Source: Eledone cirrhosa (taxonomy: Eukaryota). From it: a stretch of DNA of 64,000 bases. Positions 11,105-61,790 of the stretch are shown in pieces. The notes under the pieces are model-generated. The model did no database searches. It saw only the letters and a program-made list of their open reading frames with translations, and was not told the DNA's origin. Every line of letters starts with the position of its first letter. Within the stretch, counting starts at the first letter, position 1. The stretch is taken from the NCBI GenBank assembly GCA_964016885.1, contig OZ024743.1:283836001-283900000 (forward strand). The letters run 5' to 3'. The translations under genes were made by a program, and so were the position numbers.

Positions 11105-11674
11105 AAATCACCATATACAGGACCAGAAAGAAAATCGTGTCGAAATTTGCCAAGAATTCAAATGGAGTGCAGCAGATGAGCTATCATTAATGTCAATGAT
11201 CATCTCTGGTGAGGAGTCTTGGGTTTACAGGTATGATCTAGAAGAGTCCATCATCTCCATGACTGGAGGTGTGACAGAGCTGCAGTTCAATCAAGAGCAT
11301 GTTCATCGTCTGGATCTGTGCCACACAAAGAACTGGATTCTCCATGACCACAATGCCCCCTGCCACTGAGCACCATGAGTTTCTCTCCAGGCACAACATG
11401 CCATCACTTCCGCATCTGCCCTACTCACCAGATTTAGCTCCTGCGGACTTCATTCTTTTCCAAAAGGTGAAAATCAACCTCAAAGGTGGCCGTTTTAACA
11501 CCATTGTCAAGATCTAGCACGAATCGCAGAAGGTTCTCAACAAGCTTACAAAAGATTACTTTGAGGAGTGGCAGAAAAGCTGGGATCGTTGCATTGCTAC
11601 ACAAGGGGACTATTTTAAAAGAGATGGTGTTTAAATAAAAAGCTAGTCCGGAAACCTTTTGACTTAACCTCGTG
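11105..11674 (+). pseudogene. Deleted mariner (DD34D) transposase remnant with 3' TIR
   Basis: DQKENRVEICQE, IISGEESWVYRYD, WILHDHNAPCH, LPHLPYSPDLAPADF and LKGGRF across frames; TIR-like ...GACTTAACCTCGTG at ~11645-11674. Confidence 0.85.
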
Positions 11675-11793
11675 TGTATAAATAATTTCTTTAATTTCTT
11701 TAGTCAAAATACGGCGATAGCTTACATTTCTAATAATTTCAAACCCACTCGCTGTTTCGAAAATATTCTTACTATATATATATATATATATAT

Positions 11794-12960
11794 ATGGAAG
11801 CATGGCCTAGAATCAAAAGGCCTTAAAATTAACCTGGCTAAGACTAAAGTTCTAGTTTGTAGGAAAGAAAATAAGGCGCCGGTCCCTTCCGGGAAATGGC
11901 CATGCTCAGTGTGTAGGAAAGGCGTAGGTAGAAACTCCATTTTATGTCCCAAATGCAAAGTATGGGTGCATAAAAGATGTAGTGGGATCACAGGTAAGCT
12001 AACTAAGAACATAGATTTTACATGTGGCCGGTGCTCTGGTGCAATAAGTAGCAGCAAGTGCCCACAAAATACTAGCTCTTTCAATTGCGCAGAGGGTTCT
12101 ATAGAAATAGTGGACAGCTTCCGTTACCTGGGTGACAAAATCAGCAGTGGGGGAGGGTGCTCTGAAAGTACAGTAGCTAGAGTCAGAACTGGATGGAAAA
12201 AGTTCAGAGAGCTTATACCACTATTAGCCGCTAAAGGGTTCTCCCTAAAAATGAAAGGCAGGTTGTATGATGCTTGCATACGAACAGCAATGTTGCATGG
12301 CAGTGAGACCTGGGCATTGTGTGCAGAGGATATACGCAGACTGGAGAGAAACGAAGCTTGCATTCTCCGCTGGATGTGTAATAGTAATATACGTGAACGG
12401 CAAAGCATAAACGAACTAAGGAAAAAATTAGAAATAAGAGGGATCAGATGTTGTTTACTCGAGAGAAGGCTACGTTGGTATGGTCACGTGATGTGCATGA
12501 AAGACGACAGCTGTATAACAAAGTGCAGGGCAATAAAGATAGACGGTAGCCACGGAGTAGGCAGACCCAGAAGAACCGCCTTACCTAAATACAAAGTAAA
12601 ACCTACTACAGTCAGTAGGCATCTCTAACAAAATACACCACCCCATCCACACCGCCCCTTTCAATGTAAAGTTATGTTGGTGCCACAACATCCAGGCCGA
12701 AACAAATGAGATCGTGTAGGTGTCACGACAAAAAAACACACAGTTCACGCTGTAATGTGGCCGTGTAGGCAACACGGTAAAAACCTCCCAGCCCCACACT
12801 GTAAATGTGGTTGGTGTTAGGAAGGGCATCCAACTGTAGAAAACCCGCCAGACAGTCCTATGCGAGCAATGACAACCACTCTTGCCTCAAGTGGGAAAAC
12901 TTCCGTCCAAACCCATGCAAGCGTGGAACATGGACGTTAAACGATGATGATGATGATGAT
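11794..12960 (+). mobile_element. 5'-truncated young RTE-PHD copy (subfamily of 58017-61790) inside an EDEM1 intron
   Basis: Near-identical to 60385-61790 with an internal deletion at ~12572; (TA)n on the 5' side, (GAT)n tail then ATAT. Confidence 0.93.
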
Positions 12961-17320: not shown

Positions 17321-19782
17321 AGACATTCAATGTAGAAGAGCACTGGGAGTTCCTAAAAAATAACTTACTAGAGGCGACGGATGAGGTCTGTGGCTGGAGT
17401 AAGACCACAAGCAGGAGGAGAGTGACTTGGTGGTGGAACAATATGGTAGATGAGGCAGTTAAGGCCAAGAGACAGGCATGGAAAGAATGGAAGAACGGGG
17501 GGAGCAGGGTACATTACATAGAGACCAAGAGGGAAGCTAGGCGACAAGTATACTTAGCTAGGAGGGAAGCAGAGGATAGAAAATTCAAGCATGTTTTGCA
17601 ACGTGAGGACCAGAAACAGGAGGTGTTCAAGATTGCGAGGCAGTGTGTCAGAGAGATTGTGATGTCATTGGAGAGAAGTGTATCCGGAATGATAAAGGTG
17701 AGCTTGCCCTCACAAGTGCTGAGAAGAAAGATGCATGGAAGAGTCATTATGATAGATTACTAAATGAGGAGAATGCATGGGAAGAAAAGACCCTACCCCA
17801 AGTAGACCCTATAGAGGGGCCAGCAGTACAAGTCAGCAGCAGCGTAGTAAGTAAGGCAATCAAAGATATGAAGATGGGGAAGGCAACCGGTCCATCGGGT
17901 ATAGCTGCCGAGATGCTGAAGGCATCTGGGTCCATAGGTCACACTATAACCACACGTATTGTTAACCAGGTAATACTAGGTGGTGTCATACCAAAAGATT
18001 GGTGCAGTAGCATCATTGTCAACTGCTATAAACGTAAAGGTGATGCACTAGATAGAGGAAACTATAGAGGTATAAAGCTGATGGACCAGGTCATGAAAGT
18101 AACAGAAAGAGTTATAGCACAGTTGATTAGGGACGGGGTGAAACTAGATGAGATGCAATTTGGGTTTGTACCAGGAAGAGGCACCACTGATGCCCTCTTC
18201 CTTGTGAGGCAGTTACAGGAAAAGTACCTAGCTAAAAGTAAGCCACTCTACCTGGCATTCGTCGATCTTGAGAAAGCCTTTGACACAGTTCCACGTGCTG
18301 TAATCTGGTGGGCTCTTAGAAAACTAGGAGTAGATGAATGGCTTGTGAAAGCGGTACAAGCCATGTATAGGGGAGCAGTCAGCAAAGTTAGGATTAGCAA
18401 TGAGTATAGCGAGGAATTTAGCGTACAGGTTGGGGTCCACCAGGGCTCTGTTCTTAGCCCCCTCCTGTTCATCATAGTTCTGCAGGCAATAACGGAGGAG
18501 TTTAAGACCGGATGCCCATGGGAACTCCTGTATGCTGATGACCTCGCACTTATAGCTGAATCTATGGTAGAACTAGAGAAGAAATTCCAAACTTGGAAGC
18601 AGGGACTAGAAAGAAAGGGTCTCAAAGTCAACATGACAAAGATTAAGGTCCTTGTAAGTAGACGAGAAGACAGAACCCAGATCCCCTCAGGGAAATGGCC
18701 TTGCTCAGTATGTAGGAAAGGTGTAGGTAGGAACTCCATTCTCTGCCCCAAATGCAAACAATGGGTACACAAGAGATGTAGCGGGATCTCAGGAAGCTTA
18801 ATTAAGAATGTAGGCTTCACATGCAGCAGCTGTGCTGGGACAGCAAGCAGCAAACAGCCACAAGAAACAAGTACCACCAATCTCTGGGAGGGCTCTGTAG
18901 AAACAGTAGACAGCTTCTGCTACCTAGGTGACCGAATTAGCAGCGGAGGTGGGTGTTCAGAAAGTACAATAACTAGGGTAAGAACGGGATGGAAGAAGTT
19001 TAGGGAACTACTACCACTGCTAGCTGCAAAAGGCTTCTCCCTCAAAATGAAAGGCAGACTGTATGATGCGTGTATCCGAACAGCGATGTTACATGGTAGT
19101 GAGACCTGGGCACTGAAGGTGGAAGACTTACGTAGATTAGAGAGAAACGAAGCCTGCATGCTCCGATGGATGTGTAATAGTAATATACGTGAACGACAAA
19201 GCATAAATGAATTGAGAGAGAGACTGAGCATAAGAGGAATCAAATGCTGTGTGCAGGAGAGGCGGTTGCGTTGGTATGGACATGTGAAGGACGACAGCTG
19301 CATAAAAAGGTGCAGAGCACTAGAAGTCGATGGAAACCGCGGAGTGGGGAGACCCAAGATGACCTGGGATGAGGTGATAAAAGCCGACCTTACCCAATTA
19401 CACCTCTCAAAGGCGATGACACACAACCGTGACCTCTGGCGTCACACAGTAATACAGAGTACCCGACCTCCCATGGGTACAAGCTGAAGCATATAGACAA
19501 TATGCCCCCACACCCCCACTGCAAGGTGGTCGTGGAGGTGCCACGGCAAAAAAGCACCCAGCCCACACTGTAAAGTGGACGTGTAGGCGCCACGAAAAAG
19601 CACCCAGCACTCACTGTAAATGAGGTTGGTGTTAGGAAGGGCATCCAGCTGTAGAAATCAAGACAAATCAGTTCCTGTATGAGCAAGGTATGGTCAGCCG
19701 ACCAGACACTGCCCACAACAGGACAACCCGTCTAACCCATGCTAGCGTGGAAGAAAGGACGTAAAACGGTGATGATGATGAT
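17321..19782 (+). mobile_element. 5'-truncated RTE-PHD LINE (divergent subfamily); RT ORF 17643-19487
   Basis: AFVDLEKAFD, QGSVLSPLLF, LYADDL, C4HC3 insert, RLRWYGHV, GRPKMTW; frameshift near 17650; 3' stem-loop and (GAT)n tail. Confidence 0.95.
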
Positions 19783-26985: not shown

Positions 26986-29900
26986 ACTCATCCAAGTAGG
27001 CTCATCTCCACATACCCACCCACTCGAAACCCCACCATTTGCCGCTACTCTCTACGCTATAGAATATGTACGGATAGTGGCTGCAAATTCACCCATTTAC
27101 CTAGGACAAAACGATCTATCCCCACAAACAGCCACCACCATAATACATACTCTAATTTAACACCAACACAACCACCAATAACTCAAACAAGGAATCCACA
27201 AATCTGCCGCTTTTCCCTGCGAGACAGATTGTGTTTAGACCGGGATTGTCCCTCTACCCATCTCCCGGGGACCCGTCGGACAAATGAAAATAAAATTAAA
27301 AATAAAAGCAAAAACAAAAACCATAACCTACATAAAAATAACCACTACCACAGTCACCAACAGTCTTCTAAACAGGAAACTTCTTCCTCTTTTTTAGCCA
27401 TAATGAATCTGGCAAAAGAACTGGAAAAAAACATTCGAGCTATCACCCAGCACCACCCTCCACTATCACCCCACTGCACAAACTCCCATTGCTGCCATTA
27501 ACAAACAAACAAATTAACAACACACCAAAACAATTAAAACCATCCACTCTCGCCTCTACATTTTTGCTTAATGCCCAAGGCATCAGCCCTTCCACCAATA
27601 CTCAAAAATGGAAGATCAAATTCCTGGAGGACTGGATTGATGTCCATCCAAACCACATCCCTTTCTTCGTCCTCACTGAAACCCATTTCAGCAACCTCCA
27701 CTTGGAAGCCGAGGTGAAAGTGAAAAATTTCAAAGCCATCCGTGCTGATCGCGCTGGCAGAAGAAAGGGCGGGACTGCCATTTATGTCCATAATTCTTTC
27801 TCAACAGAGGCTATGAACATATTCACTAATGGATACTGTGAAGCAGTCACTGTATTCAGTCAAACCAACAACCTAATAGTAGTTGGGCTCTATAGGCCAC
27901 CCCAAACGCCTGTACCATGCTTCAAGGAATGCCTCAACAGCATAAAGTGTTTCATCCAAGAGTGTCACCCTGACAACATCTTAATGATGGGGGACTTCAA
28001 CCTCCCCAGAGTTGACTGGTCCACAAACAGCCTGCCACCAGGTTCTTCTGCCTCAACCTCTGACAGGGAAGCAGTGGAATCGCTTCTTGACTTCATGGAT
28101 GATTTCTTCCTATCCCAACTGGTGCTCGAACCAACGAGGTGCCACAAAAACGTCCTAGACTTAATTTTCAGCAATCACACTGACAATATTGCAGTGGAGA
28201 AAACTCTACTCTCTGATCATGACATGGTTCTCTGTGATCTGAGATTCCACCGTCCAATATACAAACCCAATGTCATCTCTCCTGTCCATCCGTTTGACGC
28301 TATGGATTTCCACAATGCAAACTGGGAAGCGATCAGTCATGATCTTGCACATGTCGACTGGTCCTTCACGCACACTCATACACCCACTAACATCAAAAAG
28401 TCCTGGCAGACATTTGTGGACACTGTTACAAACATATGTGCAAAACACACCCCATTAAGAACTATAAACAAATCTAAGAGCAGAATCCCTAGAAATAGAA
28501 AAACGCTCATCAGAAAAATTAAGAGAACGAACAAAAAAATCAACAAGCTGAAATACTGTCAGCAGCAACACATCAACTTGACTGCCATTTCATCACTAGA
28601 GATTAAAAAACATAACCTCCAAAACAACATAATGTCCCTCATCAACAATCAGAGAAGAGCTGAAGAGGCCTGGGCCATTGAGAAGATCAAACTCAATCCC
28701 AAAGTGTTCTTTTCATTTGCAAAAAAACACAAAATCACTGGCTCTACTGTTGGCCCTCTAATTGATGAAAATGGCACTCTTCAAGACAATGCTAAAACCA
28801 TGGGTGAGATACTGCAGAAACAATACTGCTCTGTTTTCAGCAATCCTGATATGGCCGATCTGGGCTGTATCGGCGATGTTACTCCCCATTACACCTTATC
28901 GGACATAACGTTTGGCGCCCCTGATGTCTTAGCGGCAATAAAGGAAATCAAGCATAATTCAGCAGTAGGTCCCGATAGGTTCCCTGCTTGTGTCTTGAAG
29001 GCGTGTCAACACCAACTTGCATCTCCTCTTGCCAATCTGTGGCGGAACTCACTGGATGCTGGATATGTGCCAGAAAATCTATCCCAGTCTGTTGTCCCAG
29101 TTTTCAAAAAGGGAAACAAATCCCTTGCCGTGAATTACCGTCCAATCTCACTCACCTCTCATATCATTAAGGTATTTGAGAGAGTGGTGAGATCGCGAAT
29201 GACCCACTTCCTTGAGAGTAACAATATGCTGAACTCCAACCAGCATGGATTCCGTAATGGAAGGGATTGCCTGACGCAGCTACTGCATCACTTTGATGAC
29301 ATTTTGAGAGCCTTGGGAGAGGGTTCCAACACTGATGTTATCTACCTTGATTTCAGCAAGGCCTTTGACAGGGTTGATCATAACATTCTACTGAGAAAGC
29401 TGTCCAATATTGGTGTCACTGGAAAGCTGCTGCAGTGGATCAAGAGCTTCCTGTCAAACAGAACCCAACATGTTGTAGTTGAAGGAGTCAAATCCAGCCC
29501 AGCCAAAGTCAGTAGTGGGGTCCCACAAGGCACTGTTGGGCCCACTTCTCTTCATCATCTATATTAATGACATCACTGACATCATCAAACACAGCAACAT
29601 TAAAATTTTCGCTGATGATTCCAAGCTCCAAAAGGTCATCAATGGCGTGGATGACCGGATAAGCCTTTAGTCAGACCTACTGGCTGTTACCCAATGGGCG
29701 GAAAAGAACAACATGTTACTGAACGAAGACAAATTCGAACTGATCCACTTTGGAAAAGAGGATGCTCTGAAACTCCCGTACTCCCTTCCTTCCGGGGAAA
29801 CTCTCGTGGCATCTAACAACATCAGAGACTTGGGAGTAACCGTGGACAGCAACATAAGCTGGACCACGCATATAAGCAGCAAAGTTGACATGGCCCGCAG

Positions 29901-30570
29901 AATGTGTTCCTGGATCCTCAGAACCTTCCAGTCGAGAGATTCCCACACCATTATCCTTCTCTTCTCTACTTTTGCCCGACCACACCTTGAATACTGTTGT
30001 CCACTGTGGTCTCCCCACACGAAACAAAGTATCATGAAACTTGAAGCTCCTCAAAGGGCAATCACGAAAAAGATAGATGGCATGTCAGACCTTGACTACT
30101 GGGGTCGACTAGAAAAGCTGAAACTTTACTCACTCCAACGTCGCCGTGAGCGTTATATTATCTGCATGATGTGGAAAATGTTCCATCATCACTGCCCAAA
30201 TGATGTTGGCATCGCCTTCAAGATACACCCAAGGCTTGGGCCCCGTGCTATCCGTCCCATACAAAAATCTAAATCGCAACTCATAACAACAATACGGCAC
30301 AATTATTTCACCTCAATCGGCCCTGCTCTCTTCAACATCACACCAGGACACGTCAAAACAGAAACTGACCACACAAAATTCAAGAAGTCTTTGGACAAAT
30401 TCCTCCAAGTAATCCCGGACAAACCACACACACCCGCAAACAGTAATTCTCTTTTCGAATGGGCCATGGTGTCCAAATCCTGAATTGAAAGACTTCGCCA
30501 GGTGGTGCTATTAAGTTAGACATGGCCTGGGCCAATACTGGCCAAAACATTTCAAAGTTATTCAAAGTTA
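26986..30570 (+). mobile_element. CR1/L2-group LINE family A, 5'-truncated in ORF1 (two CCCH fingers); APE-RT ORF2 with a frameshift at ~29535 and a TAG at 29668
   Basis: ORF1 frame 26986-27501 has two C-x8-C-x4-C-x3-H motifs; ORF2 has LLNAQG, LTETH, GDFN, SDH, YLDFSKAFD, GVPQGT, FADD, RPHLEY; 3' tail (TTCAAAGTTA)2 abuts a TA array. Confidence 0.93.
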
Positions 30571-33469: not shown

Positions 33470-34411
33470 ATGGACTGCATGCAGGAGAAAGGTGAAATCA
33501 GGAGTCAACGAAACTGGTCAAAGATGGAACTAGCGGTTTTGATCAAGGGGTGGACCATGGCTGATGGGTCTCCACCAAGCAAAAAGATGGCGGAGACCCT
33601 GAAGAGCCATGGGTTTCTGAGGACCCTGGCACAGATAGAGAGAAAGAGAAAAGAAATTGAGAAGGCGTATGTCCTCATAGCGCCACATATGGCGATGCTA
33701 AGCCGTGTCCTCAGGGAGGAGAAAACCGAAGGGAGGGATGAGGAGAAGGAGAGGGAAGAGGAAGGGGAAAGAGAAAAGGAGGAGAGCACAAGCACGGACC
33801 TGAAAGAAAATGATATACCCTCCGCCACAGGCAGGGAGGGCAGGCCGGGCAACCAACAAGCTAAGGGCAAAGGTGAAAAGCGAAATCACCTTCCGAAGGA
33901 GAACCAAGCACAGAGGGACCAGTGAACAACTATTCAAAGAAAGAACAGAAAGCACCGAGACACTGGGAGCAAAAAACCCCAAGTAATGTGCAAGTTTTTC
34001 AAGAACGGGACATGCTGGCATGGAGAGACAGGGATGGGATGCAGATTCACCCACCCTAGGTCTCAAACGAACTATGCCCATCATACTTGCGCAACATGCC
34101 CCAGCCAAAGCCGAAATAAGCCGCTCCAGAAGTATGCTGATGTCGCGCGTGCTGCACCAACAAGGAGAAGGCACGCACATGCCGACGAGATACAGATGGC
34201 AGCAGCAGATCAGAAAAATTTTTTAGTGATGGCAGAGAAGATTGTGGGACAGCTGACCTGGCTGCATCGTCTCCAGAGCCAGGGTCATCCACACCAGCAC
34301 TCGAGACCACCGCAGTTAAGGGACCCAGAGTGGCCGCCGCTGACACCAGATCAGGTGTCATACCGACAGCCATTACTGGCAGCCCAAAAGTCACACCAGT
34401 GCTGCTGCTGA
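33470..34411 (+). CDS. LINE family B ORF1: Myb/trihelix-like domain plus CCCH finger; one in-frame TGA at 33923
   Basis: RNWSKMELAVLIKGW...MAETLKSHGFLRTLAQIERKRKEIEKAY and CKFFKNGTCWHGETGMGCRFTHP; track ORFs 33089 and 33986 share a frame and only one TGA separates them. Confidence 0.75.
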
Positions 34412-37371
34412 ATGTCAGGGGCCTGGTGAAACTCAGCAACATGAGTAAAATTTCCTACCTGGGAGACTTAGCCATAAGCAATCAAGCACTATGCATGGCA
34501 CTAACCGAAACGCACCTGACAAGCAGTATAGCAGATGCAGAAATACATATACCGAAATATACTGTATTTCGTTCGGACAGGAAGGAGAGAACTCATGGTG
34601 GGGTTGCTCTGTATATCCGTGAAGATGTCACACCAATTGTACTGTTGACACATTCAAACTCAGTCTGTGACACACTGATAATACATATGAAGCAACTACA
34701 GACGGTAATATGTGTCACATATCGGCCGCCCGATGCCCCCAGTCATGAGGGTAAATTTGAGGATAGCCTAAGTAGGATAGAAGAGGTCCTTGACAAACTG
34801 GACCAGGGTCTCAACATCCTACTGCTGGGAGACTTCAACCTACCAAAGGTCAAATGGCCTGAGGGCCACCTCCTCCCTGGAATGACGTCAATAGAACAGA
34901 GACAGACGGAATCCCTGCTGGCCCTCACACACAGGCTGTTCATGGAGCAAGCAATACTCCTCCCAACAAGAGGCGAAAATGTCCTGGACCTCTGTTTTAT
35001 AAACAACGAAGTGCTCATCCACAATGTAAAGGTGACACCAACAATTCTCTCGGATCATAACTTAGTAGAGCTAATGATATGTGGTCCAAGAGAACCAACA
35101 GAGACAAAACCACCAAGAAGCTCCGGGACGCTATCCAACCTTAACTTCTACAAGGCTAACTGGAAAAAGATTAAGAGTGAAATCCGGAAGCAAACATGGA
35201 GTGAAAACATTGCCACACAAGACACTAACACACAATTTCAACACTTCATGACAACGATACACACCATATGCAAAAAGTGTGTCCCGGAGAAAGAGGCAAA
35301 CAGACACAAAAATCTTATTCCCAGAGATAGGAAAATCCTTATGAGACGTAGAACTAAACTCTCAAACCAGTTGAATAGTCAACAAAACCAAAACAAGAAG
35401 GAATCCTATTTGAAACGTGCACTACTTGACACCGAGATTGCACTCAAACTTTCACATGAGAATGAGAGGGCAAAGAAAGAGAACAGGGCCATAGAAAACA
35501 TTAAAACAAACCCTAAGGCCTTCTTTAAATTTGCAAAAGAAACTGCCTCAGTACACTGCAAGATTGGACCACTCTTCCACACGGACGGTTCATTAACCGA
35601 AAATCCCCAAGAGATATGTGAAATACTGAACGAACAGTACAAAAGTGTCTTCACATGTCCACTGAGGCACATGCAAATAACGAAGCCAGAGGAGTTCTTT
35701 GATGCCACAACACTACATCAAGAAATGGCAACCATCAACCACATAGACATAACGGAGGAGGATGTGGTGTACGCCATTGATGAAATTAGAACAGACTCGG
35801 CTGCTGGACCTGATGGATTCCCAGCAGTTCTCCTAAAAATATGTAAGCGGGCCTTAGCAACTCCACTGAAGATGCTCTTCAGAAGCTCCTTGGCTAGCGG
35901 TGTACTACCCAGGGAGCTGAAAGAAGGCACAATATGCCCTATCCATAAAGGAGGTAGTAGAGCGGAGGCCAAGAACTATAGGCCAGTCTCCCTGACGTCG
36001 CATATCAGTAAGGTCATGGAGCGAGTCGTCAGAAAGAAACTAATCACTTTCCTCGAAGAAAATGACCGCCTGACTAGCACGCAACATGGCTTCCGCCCAG
36101 GAAGAAGCTGCCTTACACAGCTGCTACATCACTACGACTGGGTACTGAGACAACTACTAGACAGCTCACATGTAGACGTGATATATCTTGACTTTGCGAA
36201 GGCCTTTGACAAGGTCGACCACGGAATGATATGTCACAAACTACACGGACTCGGCATAACTGGAAAAGTAGGTGAGTGGCTGCATGGCTTCCTAAGGGAC
36301 AGAAGCCAGGCAGTCGCAGCAAATGGGGCCCTCTCGAGGGAAACACCGATAACAAGTGGGGTGCCCCAGGGGACAGTCCAGGGACCACTACTGTTTTTGG
36401 TGGCTCTCTCGGACATGCCCTCTGTGGTGCATGCAACAACATCCCTCACTAGCTATGCTGATGACACTAAGGTAGCACAGGCAATCAAAAACCCGGCTGA
36501 CGCTGCCCTCTTACAGCAGGATCTGGATGCCATATACAGATGGGCGGAAGAAAACAACATGCAGTTTAATGCTGGCAAATTCCAAGCCCTACAATACAAA
36601 CCTGCAAACACAAACACAAATATAGCGGAACACAGCTACACAGGACCAGGAGGGACCGATATCCCCGTGTCAAAATCGATACGAGACCTGGGCATAGACA
36701 TGAGCGATGATGCATCTTTTTCTTCACACATCATGAAGGTGGCGACAACATGTAGACGATTCGCTGGCTGGATCTTGAGGACTTTCCTTACAAGAGATCG
36801 AGACACCATGTTGACACTGTGGAGGACTTTTGTTCTAAGCCGCCTGGACTACTGCTCCCAGCTGTGGTCACCCCATAGTGTCAAACTAACCACGGAGTTT
36901 GAGGCAAGCCAGCGAAGCTACACCAAGAGGATTGCCAAGATGAGGGAGACAAGCTACTGGGAGAGGCTAAAGGAACTGAACCTCTACTCCTTGGAGCGAA
37001 GACGGGAGAGATACGCAGTGATCTACATGTGGAAAATCCTGGAGGGACTAGCACCAAACTTTGGCATTGGGAGCTGGACCAACCGTCGAACAGGACGTCA
37101 CTGTGTGGTGCCAAAGGTCCCGTCTTCCACATCTAGAATAAGGAGCAGGTATTGCAATAGACTGGGATTCAAGAGCCCTCAACTCTTCAACAGGCTGCCG
37201 AGGCATCTGCGAGACTTGCATGACGTGGAGGTGGATGTCTTTAAGAAACATCTCGACACCTTGTTATCCAGGATCCGGGATGAGCCCACAGCAAGACACG
37301 AGGGAAACCTAAGGGCAGCAGCAACAACCTCCCTCATACACCAGTGGCCAACCTATACAGGCTGGAGATAA
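34219..37371 (+). CDS. LINE family B ORF2 (APE endonuclease plus reverse transcriptase), uninterrupted
   Basis: [54 protein letters not shown]; frame is open from the slippery site at 34219. Confidence 0.93.
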
Positions 37372-38799: not shown

Positions 38800-41700
38800 C
38801 CAGCTAGCTACCCCACACCCCTCCCTCCCACCCCCACACGCCACCATACTTAATACGTGGACCAATCATAAGCCAGAGCCCCCCCCCCCCCCCGCATCAC
38901 CACCATTATTATAAGCCAGAGCCCCCCACACATCACCATTATTATTATTACGCGGACCAAATCATAAGCCAGAGGCCTATACTATCGCTTGCCCGGTTGC
39001 CTTCGATATATGATGGATGGATGGATGGACGGACGGACTGCGGAATCCTGGAGAGTGGAAGGGAGAGAAAAATCTGGACGCCCAGAGCGAAAATGCCAAA
39101 GTTCAAGTCAAATTCACCTCGTGGACGAGAATGCGAGCACTCCTCTTTGTTTCGTCCGCGGATGGCTAACATAACCCTATCTCCTCCCGCCCCCCACCAC
39201 CCCCACCCTCCAAACGCAACCCAAAACTTCAGAGTTGGTACCATAAATGTAGGCACCCTAAAGGGTCGCGCTAACGAGGTTGTAGAAATGCTTGAACGTA
39301 AGGAGGTCGATGTTTGTTGTATTCAAGAGACCAGGTGGAGGGGTGGGTCTGCTAGATTCATTGAGGGTAAAAAACGATGTTATAAGCTTTTCTGGGCGGG
39401 AAACGACGATGGGCTGGGTGGAGTAGGAATCATGGTAGCAGAAAAGTGGGCAGATAAGATAATAGACGTAAATAGAGTGAACGACAGAATAATTAAAATA
39501 AGACTTGTCCTCAATAGAACTACGGTGACAGTAATATCTGCGTACGCACCCCAATCCGGACTGCCCGGCACTATAAAAGACAGATTCTATGAGACACTGT
39601 TGCTAACTACCTCCCAAATATCTGACAGTGACTATATAATTATTGCAGGCGACCTAAATGGTCACGTTGGACAACATTGTGACGGCTACGACGAAATCCA
39701 TGGAGGCTATGGGTTTGGTACTAGAAATGAGGAAGGCTCCAGAATCCTGGAATACTGTGATGCAAATAACCTAACTATCTGTAACACTAACTTCAAAAAA
39801 CGTGACAATCACCTGATTACCTATAGATCCGGGGAACACACAAGCCAGGTAGATTATATCCTTACCAGAAGACGTGACAGAGTGTCTGTTGTAAACACTA
39901 AATCCCTCCCCCATGAAGAATGCACCTCCCAACATAGACTGATAATTAGCGACCTCATAGTCAGGACGAGACGTACCCGACAGCAGAAGAGGACTATCCT
40001 CAGGAGAAAAATATGGAAGCTAAAGGACCCCACAGCCAGAAATAAATTTCAAAGCATATTACTTGATGCTTTCGACAGTAAGGAAGAGCATCTAGAATCG
40101 GACAATATAGAGGGACAGTGGAAATTTCTGAAAGCAAACCTGCTGTTGGCGACAGACGAGGTCTGTGGCTGGAGCAGGCCTGTAGGCAGGAGGAGAGTAA
40201 CATGGTGGTGGAACAATAGGGTGGAGGGGTCAATTAAGGCCAAAAAGCAGGCTTGGAAAGTATGGCGGGATGGGGGAAGTAGAGTAGACTATCAAGTGGC
40301 CAGGAGGGAAGCTAGGAGAGAAGTGTACTTAGCAAGAAGGGAAGCGGAGGAAAGAAAGTTCAAGCATGTTCTACAACGCGATGACCAAAAACGTGAGGTG
40401 TTCAGGATTGCCAGGCAATGCGTCAAGGAAAACCGTGATATTGTCGGGGAGAAGTGTGTACTTAACGATGATGGCATACTTGCCATCACCGACACTGATA
40501 AGAAGGTAGCTTGGAAGTGTCACTATGAAAGGCTACTAAATGAGGAGAATAAATGGGAGAAAGACAGTCTCCCCCATATCGACCCGATAGAGGGACCAGC
40601 AGTGTTAGTCGAGGGGAGTATAATAAGTAAGGCAATCAAGGATATGAAGACTGGTAAGGCGGCTGGGCCTTCGGAAATAGTTGCTGAGATGCTGAAGGCA
40701 TCTGGCACGGTGGGACACACCATGGTCACCCGCATAGTTAACCAAGTCGTACAGAATGGGGTTGTTCCGAAGGACTGGCATAGCAGCATCATCGTTAACT
40801 GTTATAAGGGTAAAGGAGACGCCCTAGATAGGAGTAACTATAGAGGCATTAAATTAATCGACCAGGTCATGAAGGTCACGGAAAAAGTAATAGCGCAACT
40901 AATCAGAGAGAGAATTGATCTAGATGAAATGCAGTTCGGGTTTGTGTCAGGCAAAAGCACCACAGACGCTCTTTTCATAGTACGACAACTACAGGAGAAG
41001 TACCTAGCTAAAGGTAAACCCCTCTACTTAGCTTTTGTCGACCTGGAGAAAGCCTTCGACAGAGTCCCCCGCTCCATTATCTGGTGGGCTCTTAGAAAAC
41101 TAGGCGTTGACGAATGGCTTGTGAGGGCTACACAAGCCATGTATAAAGAAACAGTCAGCAAGGTTAGAATTAACAACGAATATAGTGAAGAGTTTAGCGT
41201 AAAAGTTGGCGTCCATCAGGGCTCTGTTCTCAGCCCCCTACTATTTATTATTGCCCTTCAGGCTATAACAGAGGAGTTCAAGACAGGCTGCCCATGGGAA
41301 CTCCTATACGCAGACGACCTGACACTCATAGCGGAATCAATGGCCGAGCTAGAGAAGAAATTCCAAACATGGAAGCACGGCCTAGAGTCAAAAGGACTTA
41401 AAATTAACCTGGCTAAGACCAAAGTTCTAGTTTGTAGGAAAGAAAACAAGGCGGCGGTCCCTTCTGGGAAATGGTCGTGCTCGGTATGTAGGAAAGGTGT
41501 AGGTAGAAACTCCATCTTATGTCCTAAATGCAAAGTATGGGTGCATAAAAGATGTAGTGGGATCACAGGTAAGCTAACTAAGAACATAGACTTTACATGT
41601 GGCCGGTGTTCTGGTGCAATAAGTAGCAGCAAGTGCCCACAAAATACTAGCTCTTTCAATTGCGCAGAGGGTTCTATAGAAATAGTGGACAGCTTCCGTT

Positions 41701-42630
41701 ACCTGGGCGATAAAATCAGCAGTGGGGGAGGGTGCTCTGAAAGTACTGTAGCTAGAGTCAGAACTGGTTGGAAAAAGTTCAGAGAGCTTATACCACTATT
41801 AGCTGCTAAAGGGTTCTCCCTAAAAATGAAAGGCAGGTTGTACGATGCCTGCATACGAACAGCAATGTTGTATGGTAGTGAGACCTGGGCATTGTGTGCA
41901 GAGGATATACGCAGACTAGAGAGGAACGAAGCTTGCATGCTCCGCTGGATGTGTAACAGTAATATACGTGAACGGCAAAGCATAAACGAACTAAGGAAAA
42001 AATTAGAGATAAGAGGGATCAGATGTTGTTTACTCGAGAGAAGGCTGCGTTGGTATGGACACGTGATGCGCATGAAAGTCGATAGCTGTATTACAAAGTG
42101 CAGGGCAATAAAGATAGACGGTAGCCACGGAATAGGCAGACCTAGAAAAACATGGGATGAGCTGATAAACTCCGACCTCACACACTTACACCTCTCCAAG
42201 ACAATGTCACTGGACCGTGACCTTTGGCGGTACTCAGTAACAGAGAAGACCCGCCTTGCCAGTAGGCATATCTAACAAAATACACCCCTCCCGCCGCCAC
42301 CCCCACCCCATCCACACCACCCCGTTCTATGTAAAGTTATGTTGGTGCCGCGCCATCCAGGCCGAAACAAATGAGATCGTGTAGGTGTCACGACAAAAAA
42401 ACACACAGTCCACGCTGTAATGTGGCCGTGTAGGCAACACGGTAAAAACCTCCCAGACCCACACTGTAAATGTGGTTGGTGTTAGGAAGGGCATCCAACT
42501 GTAGAAAACCTGCCAGACAGTCCTATGCGAGCAAGACAATCACTCTTGCCTCAAGTGGGACTACCCCCGTCCAAACCCATGCAAGCGTGGAACACGGACG
42601 TTAAACGTTGATGATGATGATGATGATGAT
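38800..42630 (+). mobile_element. Full-length RTE-clade LINE (PHD-type); 5' boundary approximate
   Basis: Single APE-RT ORF, repeated 5' segments, structured 3' UTR, (GAT)n tail running into (TA)n. Confidence 0.93.
38997..42275 (+). CDS. RTE ORF: APE endonuclease + RT with internal PHD finger; intact (true start may be an internal ATG)
   Basis: GTINVGTL, IQETRW, SAYAPQ, GDLNGHVG, VDYIL, SQHR, VTWWW, FVDLEKAFD, YADD, C4HC3, LRWYGHV, GRPRKTW. Confidence 0.95.
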   Translation: MPSIYDGWMDGRTDCGILESGRERKIWTPRAKMPKFKSNSPRGRECEHSSLFRPRMANITLSPPAPHHPHPPNATQNFRVGTINVGTLKGRANEVVEMLERKEVDVCCIQETRWRGGSARFIEGKKRCYKLFWAGNDDGLGGVGIMVAEKWADKIIDVNRVNDRIIKIRLVLNRTTVTVISAYAPQSGLPGTIKDRFYETLLLTTSQISDSDYIIIAGDLNGHVGQHCDGYDEIHGGYGFGTRNEEGSRILEYCDANNLTICNTNFKKRDNHLITYRSGEHTSQVDYILTRRRDRVSVVNTKSLPHEECTSQHRLIISDLIVRTRRTRQQKRTILRRKIWKLKDPTARNKFQSILLDAFDSKEEHLESDNIEGQWKFLKANLLLATDEVCGWSRPVGRRRVTWWWNNRVEGSIKAKKQAWKVWRDGGSRVDYQVARREARREVYLARREAEERKFKHVLQRDDQKREVFRIARQCVKENRDIVGEKCVLNDDGILAITDTDKKVAWKCHYERLLNEENKWEKDSLPHIDPIEGPAVLVEGSIISKAIKDMKTGKAAGPSEIVAEMLKASGTVGHTMVTRIVNQVVQNGVVPKDWHSSIIVNCYKGKGDALDRSNYRGIKLIDQVMKVTEKVIAQLIRERIDLDEMQFGFVSGKSTTDALFIVRQLQEKYLAKGKPLYLAFVDLEKAFDRVPRSIIWWALRKLGVDEWLVRATQAMYKETVSKVRINNEYSEEFSVKVGVHQGSVLSPLLFIIALQAITEEFKTGCPWELLYADDLTLIAESMAELEKKFQTWKHGLESKGLKINLAKTKVLVCRKENKAAVPSGKWSCSVCRKGVGRNSILCPKCKVWVHKRCSGITGKLTKNIDFTCGRCSGAISSSKCPQNTSSFNCAEGSIEIVDSFRYLGDKISSGGGCSESTVARVRTGWKKFRELIPLLAAKGFSLKMKGRLYDACIRTAMLYGSETWALCAEDIRRLERNEACMLRWMCNSNIRERQSINELRKKLEIRGIRCCLLERRLRWYGHVMRMKVDSCITKCRAIKIDGSHGIGRPRKTWDELINSDLTHLHLSKTMSLDRDLWRYSVTEKTRLASRHI

Positions 42631-58016: not shown

Positions 58017-61000
58017 TCTGGTTGCTTTTTCGATATGATGGATGAACTAAGGAATTTCTGGAGAGTCAGAAGAATCTGGACACCCGAAGACAATGCAAAA
58101 GATAACAACAAATTCACCTCATGCTGCCGGACGAAAGGGCAAAGCCCCACCCTCTTTGTTGCGGCCGCGGATGGCCAACATAACCCCAACCCCATCAACC
58201 TCACCCCTCCCTGCACCCCACCCACCAAACGCAATCCAAAACTTCAGAGTTGGTACCATGAATGTAGGGACCTTAAAAGGCCGCTCAAACGAGGTTGTAG
58301 AAATGCTTGAACGTAAGGAGGTTGATGTCTGCTGCATCCAAGAGACCAGGTGGAGGGGCGGGTCTGCTAGATTCATTGTGGGTAAAAAACGATGCCATAA
58401 GCTTTTCTGGGTGGGAAATGACAATGGGCTGGGTGGAGTAGGAATCATGTTAGCAGAAAAATGGGTGGATAAGATAATAGACGTAAATAGAGTAAACGAC
58501 AGAATAATTAAAATAAGACTTGTTCTAAATAGAACTACTGTGACGATAATATCTGCGTACGCGCCCCAATCCGGACTGCCTGGCGCTATAAAAGACAGTT
58601 TCTATGAGACACTGATGCTCACTACCTCCCAAATAACCGACAGTGACTATATAATTATTGCTGGCGACCTAAATGGTCACGTTGGACAACATTGTGACGG
58701 CTATGACGAAATCTATGGAGGCTATGGGTTTGGTACTAGAAATGAGGAAGGCTCCAGAATCCTGGAATTCTGTGACGCAAATAACCTAACAATCTGTAAC
58801 ACTAACTGCAAAAAACGAGACAATCACTTGATCACCTACAGATCAGGGGAACATACCAGCCAGGTAGATTATATCCTTACCAGAAGACGTGACAGAGTGA
58901 CTGTTGTAAACACTAAATCCCTCCCCCATGAAGAATGCACCTCCCAACATAGACTGATAATTAGCGACCTCATAGTCAGGACGAGACGTACTCGACAGCA
59001 GAAGAGGACTATCCTCAGGAGAAAAATATGGAAGCGAAAGGACCCCACAGCCAGAAATAAATTTCAAAGCATATTACTTGATGCTTTCGACAGTAAGGAA
59101 GAGCATTTAGAGTCGGACAATATAGAGGAACAGTGGGAATTCCTGAAAGCAAACCTGCTGATGGCGGCAGACGAAGTCTGTGGCCGGAGCAGGCCTATAG
59201 GCAGGAGGAGAGTAACATGGTGGTGGAACAGTAAGGTGGAGGAGTCGATTAAGGCCAAAAAGCAGGCTTGGAAAGTATGGCGGGATGGGGGAAGTAGAGA
59301 AGACTATCAAGTGGCCAGGAGGGAAGCTAGGAGACAAGTGTACTTCGCAAGAAGGGAAGCAGAGGAAAGAAAGTTCAAGCATGTTCTACAACGCGAGGAC
59401 CAAAAACGTGAGGTGTTCAGGATTGCTAGGCAATGTGTCAAGGAAAACCGTGATATTGTTGGGGAGAAGTGTGTACTAAATGATGATGGCGTACTCGCCA
59501 TCACTGACGCTGATAAGAAGGTCGCTTGGAAGTGTCACTACGAGAGGCTACTAAATGAGGAGAATAAATGGGAGAAAGACAGTCTCCCCCAGATCGATCC
59601 AATAGAGGGACCAGCAGTGTTAGTTGAAGGTAGTATAATAAGTAAGGCAATCAAAGATATGAAGACGGGTAAGGCGGCTGGGCCTTCGGAAATAGTTGCC
59701 GAGATGCTGAAGGCCTCTGGAACGGACGGACACACCATGGTCACCCGGATAGTAAACCAAGTCATACAGAATGGGGTTGTTCCGAAGGACTGGCGTAGCA
59801 GCATCATCATTAACTGTTACAAGGGTAAAGGAGACGACCTAGATAGGAGTAACTATAGAGGCATTAAATTAATCGACCAGGTCATGAAGGTCACGGAAAA
59901 AGTAATAGTGCAACTAATCAGAGAGAGAATCGATCTAGATGAAATGCAGTTCGGGTTTGTGTCAGGCAAAAGTACCACAGACGCTCTTTTCATTGTACGA
60001 CAACTACAGGAGAAGTACCTAGCTAAAAGTAAACCCCTATACTTAGCCTTTATCGACTTGGAGAAAGCCTTCGACAGAGTCCCCCGTTCCATTATCTGGT
60101 GGGCTCTTAGAAAACTAGGTGTTGACGAATGGCTTGTGAGGGCTATACAAGCCATGTATAAAGAAACAGTGAGCAAGGTTAGAATTAACAACGAATATAG
60201 TGAAGAGTTTAGCGTAAAAGTTGGTGTCCATCAGGGCTCTGTTCTTAGCCCCCTACTATTTATTATTGCCCTTCAGGCTATAACAGAGGAGTTCAAGACC
60301 GGCTGCCCATGGGAACTCCTATACGCAGATGATCTAACGCTCATAGCTGAATCAATGGCCGAGCTAGAGAAGAAATTCCAAACATGGAAGCACGGCCTAG
60401 AATCAAAAGGCCTTAAAATTAACCTGGCTAAGACTAAAGTTCTAGTTTGTAGGAAAGAAAATAAGGCGCCGGTCCCTTCCGGGAAATGGCCATGCTCAGT
60501 GTGTAGGAAAGGCGTAGGTAGAAACTCCATTTTATGTCCCAAATGCAAAGTATGGGTGCATAAAAGATGTAGTAGGATCACAGGTAAGCTAACTAAGAAC
60601 ACAGATTTTACATGTGGCCGGTGCTCTGGTGCAATAAGTAGCAGCAAGTGCCCACAAAATACTAGCTCTTTCAATTGCACAGAGGGTTCTATAGAAATAG
60701 TGGACAGCTTCCGTTACCTGGGTGACAAAATCAGCAGTGGGGGAGGGTGCTCTGAAAGTACAGTAGCTAGAGTCAGAACTGGATGGAAAAAGTTCAGAGA
60801 GCTTATACCACTATTAGCCGCTAAAGGGTTCTCCCTAAAAATGAAAGGCAGGTTGTATGATGCCTGCATACGAACAGCAATGTTGCATGGCAGTGAGACC
60901 TGGGCATTGTGTGCAGAGGATATACGCACACTAGAGAGGAACGAAGCTTGCATGCTCCGCTGGATGTGTAATAGTAATATACGCGAATGGCAAAGCATAA

Positions 61001-61790
61001 ACGAACTAAGGAAAAAATTAGAAATAAGAGGGATCAGATGTTGTTTACTCGAGCGATGGCTACGTTGGTATGGTCACGTGATGCGCATGAAAGACGACAG
61101 CTGTATAGCAAAGTGCAGGGCAATAAAGATAGACGGTAGCCACGGAGTAGGCAGACCCAGAAAAACCTGGGACGAGCTGATAAATTCCGACCTCACACAC
61201 TTACACCTCTCCAAGACAATGTCACTAGACCGAGACCTTTGGCGGTACTCAGTAATAGAGAAGACCCGCCTTACCTAAATACAAAGTAAAACCTACTACA
61301 GTCAGTAGGCATCTCTAACAAAATACACCCCCGTCCGACCACCCCCACCCCATCCACACCGCCCCTTTCAATGTAAAGTTATGTTGGTGCCACAAAATCC
61401 AGGCTGAAACAAATGAGATCGTGTAGGTGTCACGACAAAAAAAACACACAGTCCACGCTGTAAATGTGGCCGTGTAGGCAACACGGTAAAAACCTCCCAA
61501 CCCCACACTGTAAATGTGGTTGGTGTTAGGAAGGGCATCCAGCTGTAGAAAACCCGCCAGACAGTCCACGCTGTAATGTGGCAGTGTAGGCAACACGGTA
61601 AAAACCTCCCAGCCCCACACTGTAAATGTGGTTGGTGTTAGGAAGGGCATCCAACTGTAGAAAACCCGCCAGACAGTCCTATGCGAGCAATGACAACCAC
61701 TCTTGCCTCAAGTGGGAAAACTCCCGTCCAAACCCATGCAAGCGTGGAACATGGATGTTAAACGATGATGATGATGATGATGATGATGAT
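58017..61790 (+). mobile_element. Near full-length RTE-PHD LINE with a ~110-bp tandem duplication in the 3' UTR
   Basis: TA flank at the 5' end, intact ORF, duplicated segment ~61449-61560/61561-61676, (GAT)n tail. Confidence 0.95.
58093..61278 (+). CDS. RTE ORF: APE + RT with internal PHD finger; intact 1061 aa
   Basis: Same motif set as 38997-42275. Confidence 0.95.
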   Translation: MQKITTNSPHAAGRKGKAPPSLLRPRMANITPTPSTSPLPAPHPPNAIQNFRVGTMNVGTLKGRSNEVVEMLERKEVDVCCIQETRWRGGSARFIVGKKRCHKLFWVGNDNGLGGVGIMLAEKWVDKIIDVNRVNDRIIKIRLVLNRTTVTIISAYAPQSGLPGAIKDSFYETLMLTTSQITDSDYIIIAGDLNGHVGQHCDGYDEIYGGYGFGTRNEEGSRILEFCDANNLTICNTNCKKRDNHLITYRSGEHTSQVDYILTRRRDRVTVVNTKSLPHEECTSQHRLIISDLIVRTRRTRQQKRTILRRKIWKRKDPTARNKFQSILLDAFDSKEEHLESDNIEEQWEFLKANLLMAADEVCGRSRPIGRRRVTWWWNSKVEESIKAKKQAWKVWRDGGSREDYQVARREARRQVYFARREAEERKFKHVLQREDQKREVFRIARQCVKENRDIVGEKCVLNDDGVLAITDADKKVAWKCHYERLLNEENKWEKDSLPQIDPIEGPAVLVEGSIISKAIKDMKTGKAAGPSEIVAEMLKASGTDGHTMVTRIVNQVIQNGVVPKDWRSSIIINCYKGKGDDLDRSNYRGIKLIDQVMKVTEKVIVQLIRERIDLDEMQFGFVSGKSTTDALFIVRQLQEKYLAKSKPLYLAFIDLEKAFDRVPRSIIWWALRKLGVDEWLVRAIQAMYKETVSKVRINNEYSEEFSVKVGVHQGSVLSPLLFIIALQAITEEFKTGCPWELLYADDLTLIAESMAELEKKFQTWKHGLESKGLKINLAKTKVLVCRKENKAPVPSGKWPCSVCRKGVGRNSILCPKCKVWVHKRCSRITGKLTKNTDFTCGRCSGAISSSKCPQNTSSFNCTEGSIEIVDSFRYLGDKISSGGGCSESTVARVRTGWKKFRELIPLLAAKGFSLKMKGRLYDACIRTAMLHGSETWALCAEDIRTLERNEACMLRWMCNSNIREWQSINELRKKLEIRGIRCCLLERWLRWYGHVMRMKDDSCIAKCRAIKIDGSHGVGRPRKTWDELINSDLTHLHLSKTMSLDRDLWRYSVIEKTRLT

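Follow-up and report, generated by a model that had tools for sequence, protein, structure and literature searches.

The gag-pol site of HIV-1, U_UUU_UUA (PMC5009743), shares with the locus described here an identical heptamer in an identical register, followed by G as in our family A, together with a long upstream ORF and an enzyme ORF that lies in the −1 frame and lacks an AUG of its own. The two differ in that the host element here is a non-LTR retrotransposon with no protease by Pfam, so that a fusion protein would stay uncleaved, and in that family A has no strong stem-loop 3′ of the site. Among non-LTR elements, the APE-type retrotransposons TRE5-A and TRE3-A of Dictyostelium are likewise two-ORF LINEs with ORF2 in the −1 frame, and a figure legend in PMC5911963 states that their ORF2 needs a −1 frameshift. 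They are amoebozoan, carry a C-terminal zinc finger and target tRNA genes, and the available part of that account names no heptamer for them, whereas the element here has a defined, clade-wide one. Human L1 and SART1 of Bombyx (PMC2881922) also tie ORF2 translation to ORF1 translation on a bicistronic LINE RNA, but in that account ORF1 translation terminates and ORF2p is made as a protein of its own, whereas the −1 overlap and slippery site reported here predict a fusion. Recoding for ORF2 has likewise been proposed from sequence for Paramecium non-LTR groups 1–3 (PMC5405496), which differ in invoking +1 frameshifting, reinitiation or readthrough and in belonging to a ciliate clade.

LINEs of the CR1 group (CR1, L2, L2A, L2B, Rex1, Daphne, Crack as well as Kiri; PMC13343379, PMC4120745) resemble the present elements in encoding an endonuclease and a reverse transcriptase (RT) in ORF2 and in having a modular ORF1, with PHD-first and single-ORF forms described. 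The ORF1 types described for the group are RRM+CCHC, L1-like, PHD and esterase; CCCH is absent from the accessible text of PMC4120745, and neither account, in the portions available, mentions a frameshift or an overlap. The accessible portions of PMC5009743 cover HeT-A, TART and mammalian L1 and give no ORF1/ORF2 −1 site in a LINE, and a slippery LINE site is likewise untreated in those of PMC10294476, PMC1965478, PMC1925062, PMC11835228 and PMC5006619. Retrovirus-style −1 frameshifting is a route rarely reported for LINEs, and a literature search, covering largely open-access main texts, returned no report of a slippery site in the CR1 group.

The locus lies in a 64,000-nucleotide stretch of DNA from Eledone cirrhosa, analysed as a whole and called the window below; the source genome is 3.0 Gb. 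The window holds copies of two LINE families, A and B, which we tentatively label CR1-like from their C-terminal motifs. The relevant features are as follows.

27008..30570, + strand: family A LINE copy, 5′-truncated inside ORF1; its 3′ end is a 10-nt unit present twice, then an (AT)n tract
27008..27501, + strand: 3′ part of ORF1, with a TAA stop at 27499-27501
27040..27096, + strand: CCCH-type motif 1 of family A ORF1, a pattern match
27205..27261, + strand: CCCH-type motif 2 of family A ORF1, a pattern match
27390..27396, + strand: slippery heptamer T_TTT_TTA in ORF1 register, then G; predicted −1 shift site
27390..27501, + strand: dual-coding overlap; frame 0 is the ORF1 tail FLAIMNLAKELEKNIRAI..., frame −1 the ORF2 linker
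27390..30483, + strand: ORF2 (endonuclease + reverse transcriptase; Pfam PF14529, PF03372, PF00078)
34219..34225, + strand: family B heptamer, identical to that of A, with the ORF1 stop at 34409-34411 (190 nt) and LLNVRG at 34405

The window copy of family A starts near 27008 (the match is lost at 27005-27009 in 28 of the 29 other loci) and ends with the two copies of the 10-nt unit at 30551-30570, directly before the (AT)n tract; the unit was seen in this copy only, and a short tandem repeat at the 3′ end is a feature of CR1-group LINEs. Its ORF2 is broken near 29540 and carries a further stop just before 29671. A first look at the genome gave 1426 family A candidates, and the 40 that were scored were all 99-100% identical; the window copy is a dead member of a young family. 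A complete family A ORF1 (locus L003) encodes 378 aa, with a weakly matched Myb/SANT-like N-terminus (PF13837, E 0.003, under the curated cut-off) and the two CCCH motifs; for both A and B, the reading of ORF1 as Myb-like plus CCCH comes from weak Pfam matches only, and an ESM Atlas search with ORF1 gave no usable match. The Pfam families PF14529, PF03372 and PF00078 match A and B alike, and Pfam detected neither an RNase H family nor a protease. The window copy of family B has an ORF1 stop at 33923-33925, where other copies encode Trp, and an open ORF2 frame of 1076 codons. Near-identical pieces also occur, at low depth, in two other organisms and offer no cross-species comparison.

Across the family A heptamer the ORF1 frame reads TCT TTT TTA GCC (S-F-L-A), in agreement with a first-pass annotation of this DNA, which had placed T_TTT_TTA at 27390-27396 in that register. 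The same annotation had described the −1 frame as open from 27390 into ORF2; it is open already from 27372, six codons 5′ of the heptamer and directly after a TAA at 27369-27371. The endonuclease motifs LLNAQG (27564) and LTETH (27672) have no ORF2-frame AUG ahead of them, the first in-frame ATG lying at 27813 and thus, as had been claimed, beyond both; position 27489, if meant as the ORF1 stop, is about 10 nt off. The heptamer indeed follows the CCCH region and precedes the ORF1 stop by 100-190 nt, the distance from its start being 109 nt in A and 190 nt in B, where the first ORF2 ATG is at 34441. A and B ORF2 proteins are 37% identical, and blastn between the two junction regions found nothing better than E 0.08 (a weak 54-nt match over the CCCH region), which bears out the statement that nucleotide similarity here is limited to the heptamer. 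The ORF1 tail FLAIMNLAKELEKNIRAI... likely forms an amphipathic helix, and FLExxxxL/M tails resembling it occur in relatives. An A run at 27418-27427, shortly 3′ of the site, is one base longer in a minority of contigs and also varies among older A-like copies; it is a mutation hot spot within the overlap.

Within the genome the heptamer is kept in 30/30 of the best A loci and 28/30 of the best B loci, figures that say little because the copies are near-identical, and there are 577 exact matches to the family A site with its flanks. A motif located downstream of the site also retrieved 25 older A-like copies, 70-86% identical to A; in 19 of them the complete heptamer is intact and in register, and three of these 19 look identical. 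More distant relatives came from scanning metagenomes with an endonuclease alignment: of 560 stretches 347 were confirmed and 80 kept, of which 76 were anchored (L146, L166, L190 and L199 could not be). The endonuclease tree, built on 248 columns from rows without lineage names plus an RTE-like outgroup, places A, B, a third family from the same genome (C) and two ctenophore proteins in a clade of 41 rows, with support of only 87/82. This clade has 32 DNA loci, 27 of them evaluable once L129, L134, L138, L139 and L147 are dropped (junction off the contig or upstream sequence too short). Of these 27, 24 carry T_TTT_TTA ahead of endonuclease motif I and in the register of ORF1, whereas 2000 codon shuffles averaged 0.35 and never exceeded 4; over 9531 nt the other two phases contain no copy, and the in-register heptamer exceeds chance. 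The median pairwise endonuclease identity among these loci is 33.6% (maximum 62%). The first-pass annotation had argued from recurrence in two families for a clade-wide recoding signal, a reading that is supported. One point needs correcting: A and B sit on the two deepest branches of the clade, so their match is an inherited signal and not the product of two origins.

Of the 26 first Phe-Leu pairs of the overlap, 24 are encoded by T_TTT_TTA, as is just 1 among the 81 found in ORF2 bodies; this is an enrichment of the kind that a survey proposed in the earlier annotation was to look for; the accompanying Fisher p of 1.6e-20 overstates independence because the loci are related and not phylogenetically independent. 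Nucleotide conservation of the heptamer goes beyond what the protein requires. In 26/26 clade relatives the T run comprises exactly six bases, the next base is G in 24/26, and Glu follows Phe-Leu in 17/26. Within the open ORF2 frame the sites lie at the 5′ edge (relative position: median 0.045, n=25; KS p 5.5e-19), with 52-198 open −1 codons ahead of the endonuclease; 22/26 loci have no AUG in the ORF2 frame from the site to motif I, and 4/26 have one. A CCCH motif stands upstream in the same frame in 16/26, most of the others having little upstream DNA or a broken frame. Two of the exceptions carry a site that could still re-pair, L121 with G_TTT_TTA and L126 with G_GAT_TTT, and G_GAU_UUU is a known shift site (PMC5009743); L157 has no site and possesses AUGs of its own. 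L125, just outside the clade, also lacks a site, and counting it gives 24/28. In family C, whose ORF1 combines a PHD-like region with three CCCH-type motifs (by eye), T_TTT_TTA lies two codons past the stop of the ORF2 frame. Searching the same genome with a B-like endonuclease yielded B copies only among the 30 loci fetched, and among viral contigs 30 pattern matches were obtained, none of them confirmed.

We propose that 27390-27396 is very probably a programmed −1 ribosomal frameshift site that would yield an ORF1-ORF2 fusion; distant relatives keep the heptamer in exact register, and therefore a −1 slip likely makes the copying enzyme. Ribosomes would translate ORF1 from its AUG, the majority completing it with its Myb-like N-terminus, CCCH fingers and C-terminal helix, while a minority would re-pair on UUU UUU and slip back by one base. 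Their product would keep the CCCH fingers, drop the ORF1 tail and gain the linker, endonuclease and reverse transcriptase, and the slip could set a high ORF1p:ORF2p ratio much as gag-pol frameshifting does in retroviruses. The fusion architecture exists, since P0017 joins a PHD-like region (by eye), CCCH fingers, endonuclease and RT in a single open frame. P0040 reads CCCH, FFR and endonuclease in one frame, and a search for longer relatives of its CCCH region found only P0040 itself. P0017 and P0040, each a single sequence, may be mutated copies.

A stimulatory RNA structure a few bases 3′ of a −1 site is usual, though not universal. Folding of the downstream RNA, also suggested in the earlier annotation, gave a mixed outcome. 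Across 28 sites there is a modest rise, the 90 nt after the site having a mean z of −1.26 against 0.04, −0.09 and −0.29 in controls, and among hairpins that begin 4-11 nt downstream the best has a mean of −9.6 kcal/mol, compared with −5.5 and −5.0 in controls (p 0.013 and 0.0017, base composition not controlled). A tight hairpin of 8 bp, spaced 6-7 nt from the site, is common to L132, L141 and L152. In family A, by contrast, pseudoknot-free folding gave no stable structure downstream (z of 0.1 for 90 nt and −0.56 for 204 nt, best hairpin −4.7 kcal/mol), and it found no stimulator common to the whole clade. A hairpin 4-11 nt downstream may stimulate the slip in some relatives; in family A the shift would depend either on U_UUU_UUA_G being intrinsically slippery or on a stimulator that folding did not reveal. 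The absence of a clear stimulator is the weakest point for the family A element of the window.

Slippery heptamers also occur beyond the clade. Of 47 out-of-clade loci, 28 without a long ORF1 in −1 overlap were left unscored; in 14 of the 19 that were scored a strict heptamer stands in register (A_AAA_AAC in ten, T_TTT_TTA in two, T_TTA_AAC and A_AAA_AAA in one each), the shuffle mean being 3.1 and the maximum 8. Allowing G_GA, a pattern added after seeing the data, raises the count to 17/19 against 4.2 in shuffles. The endonuclease rows of L159 and L160 in this set are identical. With a distant out-of-clade endonuclease we found two further families, D and E, in the same genome as A, B and C. 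Their ORF1 ends in G_GGA_AAC followed by TAA, with no AUG before motif I, in 12 of 20 loci scored; the remaining loci comprise four with the same reading that were mis-anchored, two without a junction and two that were not anchored.

Separate production of ORF2, by termination and reinitiation or by a non-AUG start near the ORF1 stop, with Phe-Leu conserved only as a protein motif of the ORF1 tail, is an unlikely alternative to frameshifting. Reinitiation is the route given for bicistronic LINEs including human L1 and silkworm SART1 (PMC2881922), and in the present elements ORF1 frequently stops at motif I or a little ahead of it; near-cognate codons, or an ATG, occur within the motif I strand of some loci, and the ORF1 tail past Phe-Leu does look conserved, with Glu next in 17/26. 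Yet this account leaves unexplained why the codons themselves are fixed (24/26 against 1/81) together with the T before them, why 52-198 open −1 codons start at the site, and why other heptamers occur in unrelated ORF1 types. As for a non-AUG start, which the first-pass annotation had raised against its own reading along with a spliced RNA, no conserved near-cognate start was found at motif I: none is common to the 22 loci examined, and three have none in the 11 codons listed. Splicing, with TTTTTTAG as a 3′ acceptor and ORF2 made from the spliced RNA, we consider very improbable. The G after the heptamer in 24/26 does spell an acceptor AG, and family A has ten pyrimidines directly upstream of the site; against this, pyrimidines make up on average only 0.41 of the upstream 20 nt, AG occurs inside those 20 nt at 22/28 sites, the terminal AG is absent at 4/28, CAG never occurs, and the G_GGA_AAC and A_AAA_AAC sites do not have the form of an acceptor. 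L1 shows cis-preference, ORF2p favouring its own RNA. If the same applies here, spliced genomic copies should dominate, whereas the unspliced 8-mer is retained in 585 of the 609 genomic copies of the 30-mer that lies downstream. Among the joints listed for contigs none ended at 27397/27398, an observation that is given no weight here.

Two further explanations concern the T run itself. RNA polymerase might slip on it and insert an extra base, which would fuse the frames in part of the transcripts; the family A site does occur in the genome as T7 six times and as T8 once, and P0040 runs through FFR in one frame. Such slippage, however, requires neither an exact run of six T, seen in 26/26 relatives, nor a constant phase, and T6 is present in 577 copies against the 7 longer ones, which makes this the least credible of the readings considered. 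That the family A site is a relic or a chance match with no present function is suggested by the dead window copy and by the lack of a stimulator found for family A, but we regard it as highly improbable: in a family this young and abundant ORF2 was produced recently, there is no AUG before motif I, and 19/25 older copies keep all seven bases.

Beyond the programmed −1 shift proposed for the family A site, we lean slightly towards a broader proposition, namely that −1 frameshifting may be the ancestral and usual route to ORF2 in two-ORF animal CR1-group LINEs, that the active enzyme would be an uncleaved ORF1-ORF2 fusion, and that the annotated 'ORF2p' would be N-terminally incomplete. A conserved, mutable seven-base signal makes an answer other than reinitiation testable in a very abundant group of animal retrotransposons. 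If frameshifting is that answer, the replicating enzyme carries the zinc fingers of ORF1, the proportion of ORF1p to ORF2p is fixed in the retroviral manner, and gene callers remove catalytic motifs when they begin ORF2 with its first AUG. Many natural eukaryotic frameshift cassettes would also be added, some of them apparently working without an RNA stimulator.

Several other features of these elements were recorded along the way. P0021, a gene model from Mnemiopsis leidyi, joins parts of ORF1 to ORF2 and lacks the CCCH region; by eye it resembles the L136 linker and looks as if a predicted intron bridges the shift. In D/E loci L201-L220 a hairpin of −20 to −29 kcal/mol lies some 35-88 nt past G_GGA_AAC, further from the site than the usual stimulator, and overlaps the endonuclease start; between D and E it shows an A-U to G-C change on both sides. 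Two D/E-type sequences, L213 and G000:C4:367255389, have one open frame of 1381 codons, which in L213 joins ORF1 and ORF2. Fifteen D/E endonuclease matches at G000:C28:124.71-125.47 Mb, on one strand and roughly 30-120 kb apart, suggest a large tandem array. In the distant relatives L165, L187 and L192 the overlap between a long upstream ORF and ORF2 is in the other frame (+1 type). The window also contains single-ORF elements with endonuclease and RT, presumably RTE-like, at 38808-42275, 58051-61278, 17607-19487 and 11663-12628; two of these are near full length with open frames, and a Cys-rich PHD-like finger (WPCSVC...HKRC...C) follows the RT in these elements.
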